Below are positions 23,475-31,248 of a stretch of 37,428 nt of DNA, piece after piece. The stretch spans positions 1 through 37,428 of IMG/VR virus record IMGVR_UViG_2651869749_000010; one strand, 5' to 3'. Each line of letters starts with the position of its first letter. Position 1 is the first letter of the stretch. Source of the DNA: a virus (lineage: Duplodnaviria > Heunggongvirae > Uroviricota > Caudoviricetes). The position numbers and the translations under genes were made by a program. A model generated the notes under the pieces. It worked only from the letters and a program-made list of their open reading frames with translations, had not been told where the DNA came from and made no database searches.

Positions 23475-24075
23475 TTCGTTGTTACCACCATCAGCCAGCA
23501 ATTTCATGCGTTGTGCCGAAGCCGTCGGAACACGCATTACAGACATTCCGGTAGACCTCAACACGCTGTGGTCGCCGGACACCTGCCCGGTGCATCTGCT
23601 GCCTTATCTCGCCTGGGCGTTTTCCGTTGACCGCTGGGATCGCAACTGGCCGGAAGAGACAAAGCGACAGGTGATTCGTGATGCATGGCTGATACACCGA
23701 CACAAAGGGACCATCAGCGCACTGCGAAGAGCCGTGGAGCCTCTCGGCTACCTGATTGAAGTAAAGGAGTGGTGGCAACTCAACGAGGAGCCGGGAACAT
23801 TTCGCATTGTTGTCGGAGTACTTGATCAGGGCATCACCGATGAAATGTATCAGGAACTTGAGCGCCTTATTGCGGATGCAAAACCAGTAAGTCGCCATCT
23901 GACGGGGCTGGCGATCAGCCTGAGTGTGAACGGAAAGATTTTCGTTGGTACGGGATGCTATCACGGCGATGCCCTGACGGTTTATCCCTACACCCCGGAG
24001 TCCATTATTGTCGAAGGGGATTATTTCCCTGCCCCGGCCATTCATTTAATTGATAATCTGAGAGTAAACGCATGA
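23467..24075 (+). CDS. I: Baseplate/tail protein I
   Basis: Frame 23434..24075, ATG 23467 overlapping J stop. Confidence 0.75.
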   Translation: MSNSLLPPSASNFMRCAEAVGTRITDIPVDLNTLWSPDTCPVHLLPYLAWAFSVDRWDRNWPEETKRQVIRDAWLIHRHKGTISALRRAVEPLGYLIEVKEWWQLNEEPGTFRIVVGVLDQGITDEMYQELERLIADAKPVSRHLTGLAISLSVNGKIFVGTGCYHGDALTVYPYTPESIIVEGDYFPAPAIHLIDNLRVNA

Positions 24076-25628
24076 CAGTGAAATACTACGCCATTCTGAC
24101 TAATCAGGGCGCGGCACGACTGGCTAACGCGACGATGCTCGGCAGTAAGCTGAATCTGACGCGAATGGCCGTTGGTGATGCAAATGGTGTGTTACCAACA
24201 CCAGACCCTGCACAAACAAAACTGATTAACCAGAAACGCATTGCACCGCTGAATCTTCTGAGTGTTGACCCTAACAATCAGAGCCAGATTATTGCGGAGC
24301 AAATCATCCCTGAAAGCGAGGGTGGATTCTGGATCCGTGAGATTGGTCTTTATGATGATAAAGGTGTACTCATTGCGGTGGCAAACTGCCCGGAAACGTA
24401 CAAACCGCAGTTGCAGGAAGGCAGTGGACGCACCCAGACTATCCGCATGATTCTGGTTGTCACGAACACCGAAGCCATCACGCTGAAAATCGACCCGTCT
24501 GTGGTTCTGGCAACCCGCAAATATGTGGATGATAAAATCTCAAAGCACGAGCAGTCACGACGTCACCCGGACGCCTCGCTGACCGCAAAAGGCTTTGTTC
24601 AACTTAGCAGTGCCACGGACAGTCAATCAGAAACTGAGGCTGCCACGCCGAAGGCTGTGAAAATCGCGTATGATCTGGCCTGGGGAAAATACACAGCCCA
24701 GGATGCAACAACGACCCGTAAAGGGATCGTACAACTGAGCAGTGCCACCAACAGCACCTCTGAAACGCTGGCCGCCACACCAAAAGCCGTCAAGGCGGCA
24801 TACGACCTTGCAGCCGGCAAGGCCCCCGTCAGCCACACTCACCCATGGAGTCAGATAACGGGAGTGCCTGCTGCCTCGCTGACGGCAAAAGGCACCGTAC
24901 AACTGAGCAGTGCCATCAACAGCACGTCTGAAATACTGGCCGCCACACCGAAAGCGGTCAAGGATGCATACGATCTGGCAAACGGAAAACAACCGGCAGA
25001 TGCCACGCTCACTGCTCTGGCAGGACTTGCCACTGCAGCAGATCGGTTGCCTTATTTTACCGGAGCAGACCGCGCAGCGCTGGCAACCCTTACAGCTATT
25101 GGTCGCGCTATTATCGCTAAGGGCAGTATAAAAGATGTCCTCAATTACCTTGGTTTGGGGGAAGGCTCTGCATTGCCTGTTGGTGTACCGGTTCCATGGC
25201 CCACCGCCACACCGCCAGCAGGCTGGTTACAGTGCAACGGAGCTACGTTCACCAAAGAACAATATCCTGTTCTGGCCAGAGTCTACCCGACCCTCCGTCT
25301 TCCCGATTTACGCGGTGAGTTTATCCGTGGATGGGACGACGGGCGCAAGATTGACGAGGGGCGTAAGTTGCTTTCATGGCAGAAAGGTACACTGGTCGGC
25401 GGTCATGACGATAACGATTCTGCGCTTGATATCTCGTACATGAGTAACGGAAATAATATTGACTATGGCGGCGATAAGGTGTTTGCGGGGAATTACCGTA
25501 GCGATTATTTGTGGTACGCAATACTGGGTGGAACAAACAGTCGCGCAAAAGCCGAATTAAACGGAGCATTCTTTAACATAACCCGCCCCCGCAATATCGC
25601 GTTTAACTATATCGTGAGGGCGGCGTGA
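24072..25628 (+). CDS. H: Tail fibre protein H (constant N-terminal part plus currently joined variable C-terminal cassette)
   Basis: 518-aa ORF with three internal tandem repeats and C-terminal RPRNIAFNYIVRAA shared with two silent cassettes. Confidence 0.85.
   Translation: MTVKYYAILTNQGAARLANATMLGSKLNLTRMAVGDANGVLPTPDPAQTKLINQKRIAPLNLLSVDPNNQSQIIAEQIIPESEGGFWIREIGLYDDKGVLIAVANCPETYKPQLQEGSGRTQTIRMILVVTNTEAITLKIDPSVVLATRKYVDDKISKHEQSRRHPDASLTAKGFVQLSSATDSQSETEAATPKAVKIAYDLAWGKYTAQDATTTRKGIVQLSSATNSTSETLAATPKAVKAAYDLAAGKAPVSHTHPWSQITGVPAASLTAKGTVQLSSAINSTSEILAATPKAVKDAYDLANGKQPADATLTALAGLATAADRLPYFTGADRAALATLTAIGRAIIAKGSIKDVLNYLGLGEGSALPVGVPVPWPTATPPAGWLQCNGATFTKEQYPVLARVYPTLRLPDLRGEFIRGWDDGRKIDEGRKLLSWQKGTLVGGHDDNDSALDISYMSNGNNIDYGGDKVFAGNYRSDYLWYAILGGTNSRAKAELNGAFFNITRPRNIAFNYIVRAA
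24569..24990 (+). repeat. Three tandem ~40-aa coding repeats inside the tail fibre gene
   Basis: SLTAKG.VQLSSA..S.SE..AATPKAVK.AYDLA.GK repeated three times. Confidence 0.7.
25141..25168 (+). other. Invertase crossover site 1 (boundary of constant and variable tail-fibre segments)
   Basis: Homology with the two inverted cassettes begins exactly at TTGGTTTGGGGG (25150-25161). Confidence 0.55.
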
Positions 25629-25634
25629 TACCGT

Positions 25635-26249
25635 TCAACTGGCAAGTGCCAGTGGCGCTTCCGGCCAGCTGATTTCAGGTGCCGTGCTGATATCCAGTGC
25701 GTTCAGCTCGTCGATATAATCCAGCACGGCGTTCAGTTTTGCCGTTTCTTCTGGTGTCAGACTGCGACCAGCACGCAGTTTGAGGTTGATAAGATCGACG
25801 GACGCCATCGCCTGTTTCACCCGTTGCTGGCGTTGCTGTCTGGCAACCTCCAGTTCTGCGGCTCGCTGCCGTTCAGTATCGGTTACCCACGCCTCACCGT
25901 TCCAGGTATCCCATGGCGTGGCTGGCTGTTTTGTGGTGGTGTCCGCCGGGTAATCACCCGGTTGGGTAATCAGAACAGGGTTACCGTTCTCCGTGCTGTA
26001 TACCGTCTCGCCGCGGTGATCAGGCACATGCTCCCACCCGTTCAGCGTGGCAGTCCGGCAAACCACGTAACCCGAAATTGCCTCCGGCGGTGCATCGGCG
26101 CACGAATGTGCCGGAGTACCCACCCCAAGGGCGAGATACTCCACAGAGGATGAGGTGTATTCCCGGGTTTCCTCGTCATAGTGATATACAGTGATATCGC
26201 CCGCTACAGTGGCGATACCGTTTTCATCCAGAACTGCAGTGTTACTCAT
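25635..26249 (-). CDS. Tail fibre assembly chaperone (gpG/Tfa-like)
   Basis: 204-aa ORF immediately downstream (same strand) of silent fibre cassette; typical size and position. Confidence 0.75.
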   Translation of the reverse strand: MSNTAVLDENGIATVAGDITVYHYDEETREYTSSSVEYLALGVGTPAHSCADAPPEAISGYVVCRTATLNGWEHVPDHRGETVYSTENGNPVLITQPGDYPADTTTKQPATPWDTWNGEAWVTDTERQRAAELEVARQQRQQRVKQAMASVDLINLKLRAGRSLTPEETAKLNAVLDYIDELNALDISTAPEISWPEAPLALAS

Positions 26250-26761
26250 TAAACTGCCCTCACAATGTAATTAAGTGCAATGCTACGGGGTCTGACAGTG
26301 ATACCCTTCGCATACCCGCTTCTGATAGAGGTCAGAATAGTAGCCTGCATACCATTGTCTGACATTGCCACGACAGGATCGCTGAATGTTGTCCCGTCCG
26401 GCATTTTAAAGCTGCCCTCACGAAGGTCTGTAATGGAATCTTCATTGTTGAATCCCATGCCGACTATCCCCGAGGTTCCCGTAGTGTCCTGGTTATAATA
26501 ATCCAGCATTGCTGTTCTTAACAGCGTTGCCCCTTGTGCGGACAGCAACTTACGTCCTGTATCAACTTTGCGCCCGTCGTCCCATCCACGGATAAACTCA
26601 CCGCGTAAATCGGGAAGACGGAGGGTCGGGTAGGCTCTGGCCAGAACAGGATATTGTTCTTTTGTAAAGGCGCGCCCGTCGCACTTTAACCAGCCTTCTG
26701 GCGGTGTGGCGGTGGGCCACGGAACCGGTACACCAACAGGCAATGCAGAGCCTTCCCCCAA
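26249..26761 (-). CDS. Silent alternative tail-fibre C-terminal cassette 1 (promoterless; expressed only after inversion)
   Basis: Begins with GEGSALPVGVPVPWPTATPPEGW shared with H and ends NYIVRAV; inverted orientation. Confidence 0.7.
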   Translation of the reverse strand: MGEGSALPVGVPVPWPTATPPEGWLKCDGRAFTKEQYPVLARAYPTLRLPDLRGEFIRGWDDGRKVDTGRKLLSAQGATLLRTAMLDYYNQDTTGTSGIVGMGFNNEDSITDLREGSFKMPDGTTFSDPVVAMSDNGMQATILTSIRSGYAKGITVRPRSIALNYIVRAV

Positions 26762-26780
26762 ACCAACGTTTTTATGCCGC
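26750..26780 (-). other. Invertase crossover site 2
   Basis: CCCCCAAACCAACGTTTTTAT; AAACCAA-GTTTTT resembles hix/gix half-site consensus from memory. Confidence 0.5.
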
Positions 26781-27245
26781 CCTTACGATATAATTAAAGG
26801 CAATATTACGAGGACGGTTTTCATTAGCTGTTGGCACGACACGAGAGGCGTCGAATCCAAGGTCATCGGTTTTGTCTATAGTAGTTGTGTTATTCGGCAT
26901 TCTCGCTGATCGTGTTCCTGCATCGTAAAAAGCCCCTCTGATTGCATCAAAAGACATACCGATCCCGCCATCTGCGAATCCCTCAATATTTCTTATTGCA
27001 TCCCCCTGTGAAGATAATAATTGTCGCCCGGCATCCACACCACGTCCGTCATCCCAGCCACGAATAAATTCACCGCGTAAATCGGGAAGACGGAGGGTCG
27101 GGTAGGCTCTGGCCAGAACAGGATATTGTTCTTTTGTAAAGGCGCGCCCGTCGCACTTTAACCAGCCTTCTGGCGGTGTGGCGGTGGGCCACGGAACCGG
27201 TACACCAACAGGCAATGCAGAGCCTTCCCCCAAACCAACGTTTTC
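26772..27245 (-). CDS. Silent alternative tail-fibre C-terminal cassette 2
   Basis: Shares LGEGSALPVG...RGEFIRGWDDGR and C-terminal RPRNIAFNYIVRAA; ORF-track start upstream of the crossover site is artefactual. Confidence 0.65.
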   Translation of the reverse strand, partial: ENVGLGEGSALPVGVPVPWPTATPPEGWLKCDGRAFTKEQYPVLARAYPTLRLPDLRGEFIRGWDDGRGVDAGRQLLSSQGDAIRNIEGFADGGIGMSFDAIRGAFYDAGTRSARMPNNTTTIDKTDDLGFDASRVVPTANENRPRNIAFNYIVRAA

Positions 27246-27252
27246 GTTTTTA
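27222..27252 (-). other. Invertase crossover site 3
   Basis: CCCCCAAACCAACGTTTTCGTTTTTAT; ~173-bp near-identical direct repeat with site-2 region. Confidence 0.5.
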
Positions 27253-27304
27253 TCCCTACCTATACCAACTCTGTATTTTTCACGAAACAAAGAGGATGTT
27301 TTTT

Positions 27305-27904
27305 ATGCAAATTGGCTATATTCGTGTGTCAACAAACGACCAGAACACGGATTTACAACGCAATGCACTGAACTGCGCAGGATGTGAACTGATTTTTGAA
27401 GATAAAATCAGCGGAACGAAATCAACCAGACCGGGATTGAAAAAACTGCTCAGAACGCTATCAGAAGGAGATACGCTGGTTGTCTGGAAGCTGGACAGAC
27501 TGGGCAGAAGTATGAAACACCTGATCACGCTTATTGAGGAATTGCGGGAAAAAGGTGTTAATTTCCGTAGTCTGACGGACAGCATTGACACGTCAACACC
27601 CATGGGGCGTTTCTTTTTTCACGTCATGGGGGCTTTAGCCGAAATGGAACGTGAATTAATTGTAGAGCGTACACTGGCCGGGCTGGCAGCAGCACGCGCA
27701 CAAGGACGCATTGGCGGACGTCGCCCGAAGTTGACAAAAGAACAACACGAGCAAATAGCGAGGCTGATTAAAAACGGTCATGACAGGAAACAACTGGCGA
27801 TCATTTACGACATCGGCATATCGACGATTTATCGTTATCACCCTGTAGGCGATATACAGGCTGAAGAAACAACCAGACAGACTCAGGAAAATGAAAACCG
27901 CTAA
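27305..27904 (+). CDS. Serine DNA invertase (Hin/Gin/Cin/Pin family)
   Basis: MQIGYIRVSTNDQNTDLQRNAL...GDTLVVWKLDRLGRS...MGRFFFHVMGALAEMERELIVERT...GGRRPKL closely parallels recalled Hin; frame of 27176..27904, ATG 27305. Confidence 0.9.
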   Translation: MQIGYIRVSTNDQNTDLQRNALNCAGCELIFEDKISGTKSTRPGLKKLLRTLSEGDTLVVWKLDRLGRSMKHLITLIEELREKGVNFRSLTDSIDTSTPMGRFFFHVMGALAEMERELIVERTLAGLAAARAQGRIGGRRPKLTKEQHEQIARLIKNGHDRKQLAIIYDIGISTIYRYHPVGDIQAEETTRQTQENENR

Positions 27905-27915
27905 TCTGACCATTA

Positions 27916-27940
27916 GCGGTTTTGCGTTAATCAAAACAGC
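27916..27940. terminator. Hairpin between convergent invertase and tail gene U
   Basis: GCGGTTTTG-cgttaat-CAAAACAGC imperfect inverted repeat; no clear T-run. Confidence 0.3.
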
Positions 27941-28425
27941 CCTTTAACGGAGCTGGCCGCGCTGTTAAGAGATGATGTCACTTTATCTTTGAAGCCGGAC
28001 AGCATATCGCTGAACGATGAGGATTGCAGGCGCTCCCGCAAATCCTCATCACAGCGTTCAAGAGTCAGTGAAAATTCTATCTTTTTCGCCTTACCATAGC
28101 GATCAAACTCGGAACGGGTCGTATTCGTTTCAGTCAGTACATACATGCCGTAAATCTGCCCGACACCATCAATCAGAGGCCAGGGGCGTCCTGTATATGC
28201 CTGCGTGGTCAGCAACGAAAGCGACACTTCGCCACCTGTAATTTCAGGATAAAGCACGCCGGAAAGCACAATGCGATCATCACCTGCGCCGATATACTGC
28301 CAGCCTGCTGAACGGTTAACGCGTTCATTTTTCACATGCCGCCAGCTTTTGTTTTGCTGTAACTGCTGATGCGGCAGCGTGCGCAGCTCAAAAACAAACA
28401 TGCCGTAGATCATCATCATGGCCAT
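27931..28425 (-). CDS. U: Tail protein U (P2 gpU-like)
   Basis: MMMIYGMFVFELRT...VLSGVLYPEITGG parallels recalled P2 gpU. Confidence 0.8.
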   Translation of the reverse strand: MAMMMIYGMFVFELRTLPHQQLQQNKSWRHVKNERVNRSAGWQYIGAGDDRIVLSGVLYPEITGGEVSLSLLTTQAYTGRPWPLIDGVGQIYGMYVLTETNTTRSEFDRYGKAKKIEFSLTLERCDEDLRERLQSSSFSDMLSGFKDKVTSSLNSAASSVKGLF

Positions 28426-28431
28426 GACTCC

Positions 28432-31248
28432 TCAATCTTTATCGTAAAAACTGCCACGCCCGGCACGGGCGCGCCGTTCCATTTCTGCCCTAACCATTTC
28501 ACCGACCAGTTTCGCCAGTTCGCGGGGATTCTGTGTAACAATGTTATGCAGATGAACATGAATTTCACCGCCAAATCCGGAGGCAACAGGCTCCCGGTTA
28601 CGGGAAGTTGCAGGAGCTGATGCCACTGGCGATCGTATGGCCTCCGCCACCGGGCGGGAGCTGGCCGCAACAACAGGGACCAGCGCCGGAGGCAGCGGAG
28701 CCGGAACCACGGGTGTGATATTAATTGCGGGGGCAGGCTTACTGACCTGCGCAATCTTCCGCTCCTGCCACTCCCCACGAACAGCAAGTGCGCGGGGCAG
28801 GTTCTTAAAGACAATATCGCCGGGGCCAATGCGTTTTTTCGTCTCATCAACCAGCTTACCTGTGTTATCAGCAATTTTGCTGAGTCTGCGCAGCGTCCCG
28901 GTATTGCTGTCTGTGAGCGGTTTGTTGTCTTTGGGTTTATCACCTCCGGTGCCATTGCCATTTTCCACAGGCTTCGGCGGATTGATTTTCGCCAGGTCCC
29001 CCTGAAGTAAGGCAACCTTGTCCTGAAGAATGGCCGCACGCTGTGCGTCTTCGATTTTCTTGCGCGCCCTTTCCGCTTCATCCGGAAGGACGCCAAGTTT
29101 TTCAAGTATCCACGCCAGCGTATCCAGTAGCATTTTTGCAGGTGTCAGAACAAGTTGTAACGCACCGCCAAGAACGTTACCGAATATCTCGCCAGCACTG
29201 GTACATTTATCCAGCGTTTCCTTGCTGGACTCCATCGGTGACAACAGCGATTTAAACCAGTTAAACACCTGGCTGATCCCGCTTCCGATTGCGTCAAAAA
29301 CAGGACCAAACCGTTCAAAGGTTTCGCGCAACGGGGTCAGCCTTTCCATAATCCCGCTGAACACCCCGGCAAAAAATGCCCTGATGGGATCCCAGTATTT
29401 CCAGATGAGAACGGCAGCTCCGGCAAGCGCAGCCACGATAAGACCGACCGGACTGAACAACGCCCCGATAGCGCCCCCCAGTAACGAAACGGAACCCGTC
29501 ACCATTCCCCATAGTGCTGGCAGGAGTCTGACAGCATTCATTGAACCGGTCAGGAGGGAAAAGCCAAGACGCAGTTTTGCCAGCGGGCCAGCAAGCACAC
29601 CAATAGCCAGCGACAACGAGCCAACCGTTGCAGTCATTGCCAGCAACGCACCGCCTGCTATCAGTAGCTGGCGCGTCAGTACCGGATGGGCCTGCGCCAG
29701 CGAGGTGATTTTTTCAAGCACCCGCGTGAGCCACTGCGTGACAGAACGCAGCGGACCGTCAACCAGATCACTGATGCGAATACGAAGACCTTCCCATGCG
29801 CTGTCGAGATTTTTCAGGTCCCCATCAAGATTATCGGCCATTACTTTTGCGACGCGATCGGCCTCTCCCCTTGCCCCCTGCAATTCTCTGGTCAGTTTTT
29901 GCAGCTCTCCTGAACCAGCCGCAGCAACAAGCGTCTGCAAACCAACGAACGCCTCTTCTCCGGCGATGTCCTTGAAGAAGGAAACCTGGTCCACCTGTCC
30001 GTATTTTTGTGTCGCCTTATAGAGATCAAGCAGCACATCCTCCATCGGGCGCATTTTGCCTCTGGCGTCAGCAACTGACACCCCCAGCTCTTTCAGCGCA
30101 TCAGCCGCAGCTTTTGGCGGTGATGCAAGGCGGGACAGACTTGCGCGCATGGCCGTACCAGCATCGCTTCCACGAAGACCATTATTGGCAAGCATCCCGG
30201 CCATGGCCGCCGCTTCTTCAAGACTGATACCAAGTTTTGCGGCAACCGGACCGGTATACTTCATGGTTTCGCCCAGCGCGCGTAAATCAGTATTGGTCCG
30301 GGTGAATGCCGCTGTCAGCGTATCGCCAACCCGGTCCATTTGATCGGCTGTCAGGTTGAACTGTGTGAGGATATTGGAGCCTATATCCGCCGTCTCGCCG
30401 AGTTCGACGCCACCTGCCAGCGCCATATTAAGAACACCGGGCAATGCGGCCTGAATGGCCTGCGGAGTAAAACCAGCCATTGCCAGAAAGCTCTGCCCAC
30501 TGGCGGCATCACTCGCAGTAAACTGTGTTTCAGAGCCAAGTTTTAACGCCTGCTCACGCAGCGCCTTAAACTGCGGGCTGTTTTTGTCGATTCGCGTCAG
30601 TGCCTGAACGCGGGACATCTCTTTGCCGAACCCGATCGCAGGCTGCAAAAAACGCCCGGCAGCATAGCCGCCCGCCGCTGCCGCACCAATTGCCAGCGCA
30701 CCACCTGTTTTCAGTTTTCCCGCGGTTTCCTGCGCGCGCGAATACCGCTCACGCGCCCGCGTTACACGCGCAAGCGCCTGCCGTTCGCGTTCAAGCTGGT
30801 TGTTGTACTGTTCGGTGCGTCTGATGGCCTGCTGGATGGTGTTATCGCTGCCTGTCAGGGAAATGCCGTGGCGTTTCAGCTCTCCGCCAAGCTCCCGCAT
30901 TTTCTGAATTTCCCGTGTGCGCGATTCATTCAGGCGTTCAAGCCGGGTGCTTAACTGCTGCATCAGCTTTTGTTGTTTTTCGCTGAGCACTGTACCCGTG
31001 CGTTGTAACTGATTAAGGGCGTTAAGCTGGCGTCGTGCTTTCACGATACCCGCATCCGCTTTACTGACAGCGTCGCGGGCGCGCTCAAATGATCGCGCCT
31101 GACGCTCGAGATTTTTGATCGCCCCCTGCGTTCGCTGGATGGAGTCACCAAACTGCCCCATCAGGCGGCGGGCGTTTTCGGCAGGCCGGGTCAGCCTGTC
31201 AACGGCGCTGAAAGCGACCCGGATATCAAGAGTCTTCATTGTCTGCAT
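28432..31248 (-). CDS. T: Tail tape measure protein (P2 gpT-like)
   Basis: 938-aa ORF, coiled-coil-rich N-terminus, Gly/Ala-rich hydrophobic central segments; position. Confidence 0.85.
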   Translation of the reverse strand: MQTMKTLDIRVAFSAVDRLTRPAENARRLMGQFGDSIQRTQGAIKNLERQARSFERARDAVSKADAGIVKARRQLNALNQLQRTGTVLSEKQQKLMQQLSTRLERLNESRTREIQKMRELGGELKRHGISLTGSDNTIQQAIRRTEQYNNQLERERQALARVTRARERYSRAQETAGKLKTGGALAIGAAAAGGYAAGRFLQPAIGFGKEMSRVQALTRIDKNSPQFKALREQALKLGSETQFTASDAASGQSFLAMAGFTPQAIQAALPGVLNMALAGGVELGETADIGSNILTQFNLTADQMDRVGDTLTAAFTRTNTDLRALGETMKYTGPVAAKLGISLEEAAAMAGMLANNGLRGSDAGTAMRASLSRLASPPKAAADALKELGVSVADARGKMRPMEDVLLDLYKATQKYGQVDQVSFFKDIAGEEAFVGLQTLVAAAGSGELQKLTRELQGARGEADRVAKVMADNLDGDLKNLDSAWEGLRIRISDLVDGPLRSVTQWLTRVLEKITSLAQAHPVLTRQLLIAGGALLAMTATVGSLSLAIGVLAGPLAKLRLGFSLLTGSMNAVRLLPALWGMVTGSVSLLGGAIGALFSPVGLIVAALAGAAVLIWKYWDPIRAFFAGVFSGIMERLTPLRETFERFGPVFDAIGSGISQVFNWFKSLLSPMESSKETLDKCTSAGEIFGNVLGGALQLVLTPAKMLLDTLAWILEKLGVLPDEAERARKKIEDAQRAAILQDKVALLQGDLAKINPPKPVENGNGTGGDKPKDNKPLTDSNTGTLRRLSKIADNTGKLVDETKKRIGPGDIVFKNLPRALAVRGEWQERKIAQVSKPAPAINITPVVPAPLPPALVPVVAASSRPVAEAIRSPVASAPATSRNREPVASGFGGEIHVHLHNIVTQNPRELAKLVGEMVRAEMERRARAGRGSFYDKD

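Follow-up and report, generated by a model that had tools for sequence, protein, structure and literature searches.

Three crossover sites and four predicted states in a tail-fibre inversion module of a P2-like Escherichia coli prophage

The sequence analysed in this study, IMG/VR virus record IMGVR_UViG_2651869749_000010 (37,428 nucleotides (nt), hereafter the window), is a complete P2-like Escherichia coli prophage, in which an inversion module fills the 2.8 kb separating the tail-fibre gene H from the tail gene encoding gpU. With a probability of roughly 0.92, the tail-fibre operon contains a site-specific inversion module with three sites and four states, in which a Gin/Pin-type invertase would recombine a site within H with either of two inverted sites, each heading a silent cassette, so that the fibre would carry one of three tail-collar receptor-binding tips. 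Directly supporting this are the anatomy of the module, an intact enzyme, in-frame fusions, and natural isomers whose junctions lie at the predicted sites. The module is real, mechanistically ordinary for the Gin/Pin family and widespread, and it represents one more allele of a system whose architecture, four states and their coexistence have been in print since 2014. Since a prophage with an essentially identical invertase was described in that year and the module is very common, its value as a discovery is small, and the remaining point of interest is the single flipping chaperone gene that would have to serve three tips.

A constant fibre part, three tip cassettes and three crossover sites

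The module is made up of the following parts, given with their coordinates in the window (aa, amino acids; ORF, open reading frame):

24072..25149, + strand: constant part of H (Hc), within the ORF 24072-25628, ending ...DVLNY right before the crossover
25150..25628, + strand: cassette V1, the tip currently fused to H, with a Collar domain and a variable part, ending RPRNIAFNYIVRAA
25635..26249, - strand: chaperone gene tfa, 204 aa, Pfam Caudo_TAP (3.5e-28)
26249..26766, - strand: silent cassette V2 (Collar tip), ORF 26249-26761, directly upstream of tfa
26772..27238, - strand: silent cassette V3 (Collar tip), ORF 26772-27290, without a chaperone gene of its own
27239..27304, + strand: fixed spacer from site 3 to the invertase start, presumed to hold the invertase promoter and ribosome-binding site
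27305..27904, + strand: serine DNA invertase of the Gin/Pin/Hin group, 199 aa

Hc contains an N-terminal tail-fibre domain (Pfam PF12571) and three Phage_fiber_2 repeats (PF03406 x3), and each silent cassette carries the same Pfam Collar domain that is found at the C-terminus of H. The chaperone gene is located between V1 and V2, antisense to H, and its start overlaps the stop codon of V2 (TAATG).

A repeat search of the window returned two inverted pairs that begin at the same position in H, 25147-25375 with 26541-26769 (229 nt, 90% identity) and 25147-25382 with 27006-27241 (236 nt, 84% identity), the two silent copies being direct repeats of each other (26530-26772 versus 27002-27244, 91%). 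An earlier model-made reading of these letters, referred to here as the original prediction, had claimed that H shares ~180 bp with two silent inverted cassettes; the sharing is confirmed and its other coordinates are accurate, whereas the length has to be revised to ~230 bp. The 37.4 kb contain exactly three copies of the 16-mer TTGGTTTGGGGGAAGG, located at 25150 (+), 26766 (-) and 27238 (-), compared with 0.04 copies expected from shuffled sequences, and every copy is the head of a ~230-bp repeat and of a tail-collar C-terminal cassette. In a three-way alignment homology sets in sharply at TTGG, and the first 46 bp past this boundary are identical in all three copies. The crossover sites derived in this way, with two known sites for comparison, are:

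25138..25163, + strand: crossover site 1, TCCTCAATTACC-TT-GGTTTGGGGGAA, core TT at 25150-25151
26753..26778, - strand: crossover site 2, GGCATAAAAACG-TT-GGTTTGGGGGAA, core at 26766-26765
27225..27250, - strand: crossover site 3, AAAACGAAAACG-TT-GGTTTGGGGGAA, core at 27238-27237, adjoining the invertase
Mu gix: outer half TTATCCAAAACC, core TC, inner half GGTTTACAGGAA
e14 site: outer half ..CTCGAAAACC, core TT, inner half GGTTTGGGAGAA

All three sites fit the format of the Din family, which consists of 26 bp with two 12-bp, imperfectly symmetric half-sites and a 2-bp core, and sites 2 and 3 face the opposite way to site 1, all with matching TT cores. The inner half-site GGTTTGGGGGAA, common to all of them, is gix/pix-like, agreeing with gix GGTTTACAGGAA at 9 of 12 positions and with the e14 site at 11 of 12. 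The same boundary next to a hix/gix-like half-site had been predicted for each cassette, and it is indeed present in the form of three TTGGTTTGGGGGAAGG copies with one well-kept gix/pix-like half; moreover, the positions that had been put forward for a split-read analysis (25150, 26766 and 27238) coincide exactly with the crossover cores derived here. The distance from the core of site 3 to the invertase ATG is 67 bp, equal to that from the G-segment boundary (gixR) to gin in Mu.

The stop codon of V3 lies inside the outer half of site 2, 5 bp from the core (26767-26780). This outer half is built from the conserved C-terminal coding sequence of a cassette (..RAA and the stop), which provides a simple route for adding further cassettes in tandem.

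Predicted states of the module

In the proposed mechanism the invertase would exchange strands at the TT core, immediately 5' of the conserved half-site GGTTTGGGGGAA, between site 1 and either of the inverted sites. The present arrangement, state A, has V1 (+), tfa (-) and V2 (-) bounded by sites 1 and 2, then V3 (-) bounded by sites 2 and 3, followed by the invertase. Inversion between sites 1 and 2 (1,616 bp) would convert state A into state B, with the order Hc-V2-tfa, while inversion between sites 1 and 3 (2,088 bp) would give state C, in which V2 and tfa come after Hc-V3 in sense orientation. State D, with Hc-V3 followed by V1 and with tfa antisense, could be reached from B by a 1x3 inversion (2,088 bp) or from C by an inversion between sites 2 and 3. 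Each state would thus possess two inverted site pairs and two reachable states, giving four states and three tips in total.

Switching of this kind presumably diversifies host range among the progeny, as in Mu, P1 and e14, and would widen it with little DNA, namely three ~0.5-kb tips, one invertase and three 26-bp sites. We infer this host-range consequence, as we do the dependence on Fis and an enhancer and the service of all tips by a single chaperone.

An intact invertase and a published homologue

Judged by its sequence, the recombinase is a Gin/Pin-type enzyme, a small serine invertase of the Din family with Resolvase (PF00239, 2.4e-51) and HTH_7 (PF02796, 1.4e-12) domains, in line with the Hin/Gin-type invertase of the original prediction. 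Residues 1-185 match the Mu Gin structures PDB 4M6F/3UJ3 with an E value of 2.4e-91, and the protein is 83% identical to PinE of e14 and 73% identical to Gin. The catalytic Ser9 is present in YIRVSTNDQ, an instance of the YxRVSTxDQ motif, within MQIGYIRVSTNDQ. A 242-aa ORF starting at 27176 was considered as the invertase and rejected, the true protein being the 199-aa product that starts at 27305.

The contacts with Fis and the enhancer that are specific to invertases involve K47/R48/K51 (helix B) and Q151/R154/L155 (helix 1 of the DNA-binding domain) in Hin (McLean et al. 2013, PMC3798978). With positions read off the Gin alignment and not computed against Hin, the corresponding residues appear conserved with Gin (RPGLKKLLRTL for RPGLKRALKRL in Gin, and EQHEQIARL for AEQEQAGRL in Gin). 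At the nucleotide level the first 260 nt of the invertase gene align with gin over 261 positions, 187 of them (72%) matching, and Fis-like motifs occur at offsets +29, +78 and +101 in both genes, the motif being too degenerate for proof. By analogy with gin, hin and cin, the first ~150 nt of the invertase gene should hold a Fis-bound enhancer.

A homologous locus was described as 'two interlaced funnels' in a P2-like prophage of the enteropathogenic E. coli (EPEC) O127:H6 strain E2348/69 (Goldberg et al. 2014, Genome Med 6:112, PMC4272514). Three inverted repeats of 215 bp (92% identical) were identified there and four variants with three different C-termini were deduced, and the four variants were found by sequencing and PCR to coexist in clonal cultures (locus NC_011601.1 1891695-1893703), the forward share being ~90% for the large inversion and 49 ± 37% for the small one (PMC4272514). 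The crossover sites, the enzyme family and the chaperone were not analysed in that paper (PMC4272514).

Our comparison places the EPEC locus in the same lineage as the window, with an identical protein I and a gpU segment that is 98% identical in nucleotides. The two share the gene order H / cassette / tfa(-) / cassette(-) / invertase, the three TTGGTTTGGGGGAAGG cores (the EPEC repeat as printed begins ACCTTGGTTTGGGGGAAGG; PMC4272514), a 66-bp spacer that is 100% identical, and an invertase with 99.2% nucleotide identity and 197 of 199 identical aa; the inversions measure 2.0 and 1.6 kb in EPEC and 2.1 and 1.6 kb in the window. What differs are the tips, all three of which are other alleles in EPEC (repeats ~73-77% identical in nucleotides, variable parts unrelated), the chaperone (59% aa identity) and the state, since the EPEC reference sequence has a D-type arrangement and the window is in state A.

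Natural isomers occur in other E. coli genomes

The three other isomers of the module were built in silico and searched in 5,426 complete E. coli genomes, and the retrieved loci were segment-mapped. The same element was found as isomers A, B and D, with segments 98-100% identical, and a sister allele showed the fourth arrangement, as follows (> and < mark the crossover sites in their two orientations, inv the invertase gene):

State A: Hc>V1+ tfa- V2-< V3-< inv; the window and L001
State B: Hc>V2+ tfa+ V1-< V3-< inv; L005, and also H52 and H53
State D: Hc>V3+ >V1+ tfa- V2-< inv; L002
State C: Hc>V4+ >V2+ tfa+ V1-< inv; L006, L008 and L009, with the sister cassette V4 replacing V3

Locus L005 matched the in-silico state B as a single BLAST piece with 100% coverage and 99.5% identity. 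In L002 the entire third repeat (all 233 nt) and V3 are 100% identical to those of the window and fused to Hc, with V1 displaced; two further hits, H29 and H30, agree with L002 in their search statistics. In L005, L006 and L007 V1 is inverted and silent. Complete in-frame H genes exist with V1 (window, L001), V2 (L005) and V3 (L002), and complete fibre coding sequences were annotated by the NCBI pipeline PGAP for Hc-V3 (1713 nt) and Hc-V2 (1764 nt), in agreement with the earlier proposal that inversion fuses the constant part of H to different C-termini.

The junctions are informative about the type of recombination. Flanks on the Hc side and on the invertase side are fixed in every isomer: Hc keeps its position beside gene I, the outer flank of site 1 ('tcaattacc') is unmoved, and the outer flank of site 3 together with the 66-bp spacer is 100% conserved in all relatives, including EPEC. 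The outer flank of site 2, in turn, moves with V3. The diagnostic polymorphisms of each repeat remain with their own cassette, and every junction lies at a predicted crossover, placing the exchange within the 46 identical bp next to the boundary. Confinement to the homology boundary fits site-specific recombination at the TT core, and not homologous recombination along the 230-bp repeat.

How often the module occurs, and in which orientation, was estimated with a query made of the last 400 nt of Hc joined to tfa. It matched 642 of the 5,426 genomes (~11%, roughly one in nine), with tfa pointing the same way as Hc in 317 genomes and the opposite way in 295. Nearly equal numbers are what is expected of a freely flipping segment, and the orientation that ends up in an assembly is essentially a coin toss. 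Both the annotation of E. coli tail fibres and the comparison of prophages consequently depend on the state frozen in the assembly, and the silent cassettes are labelled 'phage tail protein' or 'incomplete' by PGAP.

These results bear on the possibility that the rearrangements between genomes were produced by RecA-dependent recombination of the ~230-bp inverted repeats, the invertase being irrelevant or inactive. With lengths of 229-236 nt and 84-91% identity, the repeats would in principle suffice for an occasional homologous exchange, which would however scatter the crossovers, whereas in all isomers the repeat polymorphisms are cassette-linked and the exchange maps to the outer edge. The invertase, moreover, is intact and nearly identical to that of EPEC, where 10-50% flipping per clonal culture was seen at the locus, a rate that in our judgement, which is not a measurement, is far above the RecA expectation for short diverged repeats. 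Taken with the ~50:50 distribution of the two orientations across genomes, these observations make the RecA explanation very improbable. The case that the invertase catalyses inversion between its sites is indirect but strong, coming from the natural isomers and the four-variant data of EPEC, and it is this enzyme that we hold to be probably responsible for the switching.

Several points nevertheless weigh against the four-state reading. For the window itself, switching rests on sequence together with isomers found in relatives. The outer half-sites match the gix/hix consensus poorly, being degenerate, A-rich and ending in AC followed by C or G, and the enhancer is placed by homology to gin and by geometry. 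In states A and D the sole chaperone gene would be antisense to H, and no promoter was found for tfa there. Finally, the exact state C with V3 was not found among the 5,426 complete genomes, the V4 allele alone showing that arrangement.

The missing isomer could also be taken to mean that the module is in effect a two-state segment of the G/P type that exchanges V1 and V2, the third cassette being a dead remnant that does not participate. V3 has no chaperone of its own, and two-cassette relatives do exist: L003 (NZ_CP053296.1) corresponds to state A minus V3, and L004 (NZ_CP006632.1) has a different tip allele fused to Hc. Site 3 must have been used, however, in L002, where Hc-V3 is in frame and V1 displaced; the third cassette, in its V4 form, is fused to Hc in L006, L008 and L009; and both the large and the small inversion were shown experimentally in the EPEC homologue. 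A two-state segment is therefore hardly credible, and the choice of the original prediction, a multi-inversion system over a simple G segment, holds, given three sites and isomers that use the third.

As regards its origin, L003 is the product expected of a rare deletion between sites 2 and 3, which are direct repeats, and it could equally be ancestral. Two other loci, H38 and H108, were considered as versions with four or more cassettes and rejected, since they are two-cassette modules with a fragmented H annotation.

One chaperone gene for three tips

The window has a single chaperone gene, as had been predicted, and it is not co-oriented with the current fibre: tfa is the sole Caudo_TAP gene, and a tblastn search with four Tfa proteins found no second chaperone gene elsewhere in the window. 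Being coupled to V2, tfa flips together with it and would share the direction of the H operon in states B and C only, whereas V1 is co-oriented with tfa in none of the four states. The protein is 60% identical to TfaE of e14. Collar tips elsewhere carry their own TfaE-like chaperone, as seen for StfE with TfaE in e14 and for a V3-type tip with tfa in phage SKA5 (this tfa being 52% identical to that of the window), and V1-type tips gave only two matches in the phage collection, too few to inform on their context.

Tfa proteins combine a variable fibre-binding N-domain with a conserved trimerising C-domain, as described for the Pam3 fibre chaperone (PMC9608196). Given this division, and given that the three tips share the collar domain and the RPRNIAFNYIVRAA end, it is plausible that one Tfa could serve all three.

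How tfa could be expressed when antisense to H was approached through promoters and read-through. A sigma-70 scan of 24900-28600 gave 1 match against 4.1 expected, which is below chance, with nothing usable for tfa. A late promoter of the P2 Ogr type (TGT-N12-ACA) was considered in the fixed spacer, where TGTATTTTTCACGAAACA at 27272-27289 fits the motif; this candidate was dropped as not significant, the window having 6 such matches against 8.4 expected, none at an identifiable late-promoter position, and by eye no good -10 follows the match at 27272-27289. Transcripts running on from the convergent T-gpU tail operon on the minus strand were likewise judged an unlikely source of tfa expression in states A and D, as they should be blocked by a strong hairpin:

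27894-27923, no strand: candidate bidirectional terminator hairpin, perfect 12-bp stem with A and T runs on either side

The hairpin, AAAACCGCTAAT-GGTCAG-ATTAGCGGTTTT, overlaps the stop codon of the invertase and lies just past the gpU stop on the opposite strand. Its place between the two convergent genes makes it a candidate for insulating the invertible region from the tail operon.

One idea, which we advance with low confidence, is that states A and D express a fibre without a co-transcribed chaperone. V1 might then be chaperone-independent, or tfa might have an orientation-independent expression that has gone unrecognised, possibly including supply in trans from other prophages, or the module might combine a specificity switch with an on/off switch of fibre assembly, in which case roughly half of the lysogens would release fibre-defective particles. 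The last of these can be put in a stricter form, in which only the states with a co-oriented tfa (B and C) are infectious and V1, as in state A, leads to fibres that are unfolded or missing. It would agree with a single tfa that is translationally coupled to V2, with the habit of collar tips elsewhere (e14, SKA5) of having their own chaperone, and with the apparent lack of a promoter for the antisense tfa, which the terminator separates from the convergent tail operon. V1, on the other hand, has been kept as an intact ORF with 98-100% identity across relatives, arguing for its use; in lysogens the antisense states are no rarer than the sense states, even if lysogens are not selected for fibre function; and the chaperone could come in trans from other resident prophages, with a median of 3 matching places per genome. 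On balance we regard an on/off function as unlikely, and favour the four-state module as a switch of tip specificity.

Relation to other inversion systems

The P segment of the cryptic prophage e14 of E. coli K-12 (pinE, stfP/tfaP, stfE/tfaE) resembles the module in its invertase, in an inner half-site that is nearly the same (crossover AAAACC-TT-GGTTTGGGAGAA), and in StfE, a collar-type tip that likewise ends in RPRNIAFNYIVRAA. It differs in having two sites, two states and a chaperone for each tip (four genes), compared with the three sites, four states, three tips and one chaperone of the window.

With the G segment of Mu (gin/gix) and the C segment of P1 (cin/cix) the module shares 26-bp sites with a 2-bp core and a constant fibre part that is joined to alternative 3' parts; in P1, too, long inverted repeats have the crossover at their outer end. 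Unlike the window, both are two-site, two-state systems in which each orientation is provided with an S-U or S'-U' pair, and the tip and chaperone families of both are different, Mu U being only ~25% identical to the chaperone over a short stretch.

Systems with more than two sites offer a further comparison. The Min system of p15B, a P1-like plasmid, reportedly worked on by Sandmeier, Iida and Arber in 1990-1992, uses a Din-family serine invertase on six sites with many isomers. It brings several 3' fibre segments onto one constant 5' part by means of more than two sites, as the window does, and differs from the three sites and four isomers of a chromosomal P2-like prophage. Two features of multiple inversion are found in the module, one invertase for three sites and, among the isomers, a constant 5' part fused in frame to several 3' parts.

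The shufflon of R64 (Rci, pilV) is alike in that multiple inverted sites shuffle C-termini onto one constant gene, but it employs the tyrosine recombinase Rci on sfx sites, acts on a pilus adhesin and is not homologous. A strict shufflon of the R64 type was accordingly rejected for the window, which has a serine resolvase/invertase and a phage fibre gene as its target, although the term 'shufflon' was used by Goldberg et al. for the EPEC locus (PMC4272514).

Spread of the module, fibre length and neighbouring genes

The same V2-tfa-V1 segment was seen in a second P2-like lineage (L008, L014 and L015), which has different J and I proteins and an invertase with 86% aa identity. This lineage ends right after the invertase, against the truncated chromosomal genes irp2, paaJ and yfaL, which suggests either remnants of prophages or a prophage boundary marked by the invertase.

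A three-cassette, one-tfa module in the state-C arrangement was also found on pAVS0973-B, a 94.8-kb P1-like plasmid (L009, NZ_CP124473.1 22922-30710). Its invertase is truncated by IS26, so that this module should be frozen in state C. The phage SKA5 (L011, OR670062.1 16947-24418) combines Mu-like baseplate genes (Mup46/Mup47) with a classical four-gene invertible segment, whose silent tip has a variable part identical to that of V3 and is followed by its own tfa, pointing to an exchange of tip cassettes between unrelated tail modules.

Around the module, the plus strand of the window carries the baseplate genes V, W, J and I and then the fibre gene H (24072-25628), while the minus strand carries tail genes that end with the tape-measure gene (28432-31248) and gpU (27931-28425).

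Within Hc the Phage_fiber_2 units lie at 24588-24988, with spacings of 132 and 168 nt. Two close relatives (L001 and L003) have one additional 168-nt unit, their H measuring 1725 nt against 1557 nt in the window, and the 1713-nt H of L002 has the extra repeat unit and a V3 tip that is shorter by 12 nt. Repeat copy number therefore differs between relatives, and fibre length varies with it.

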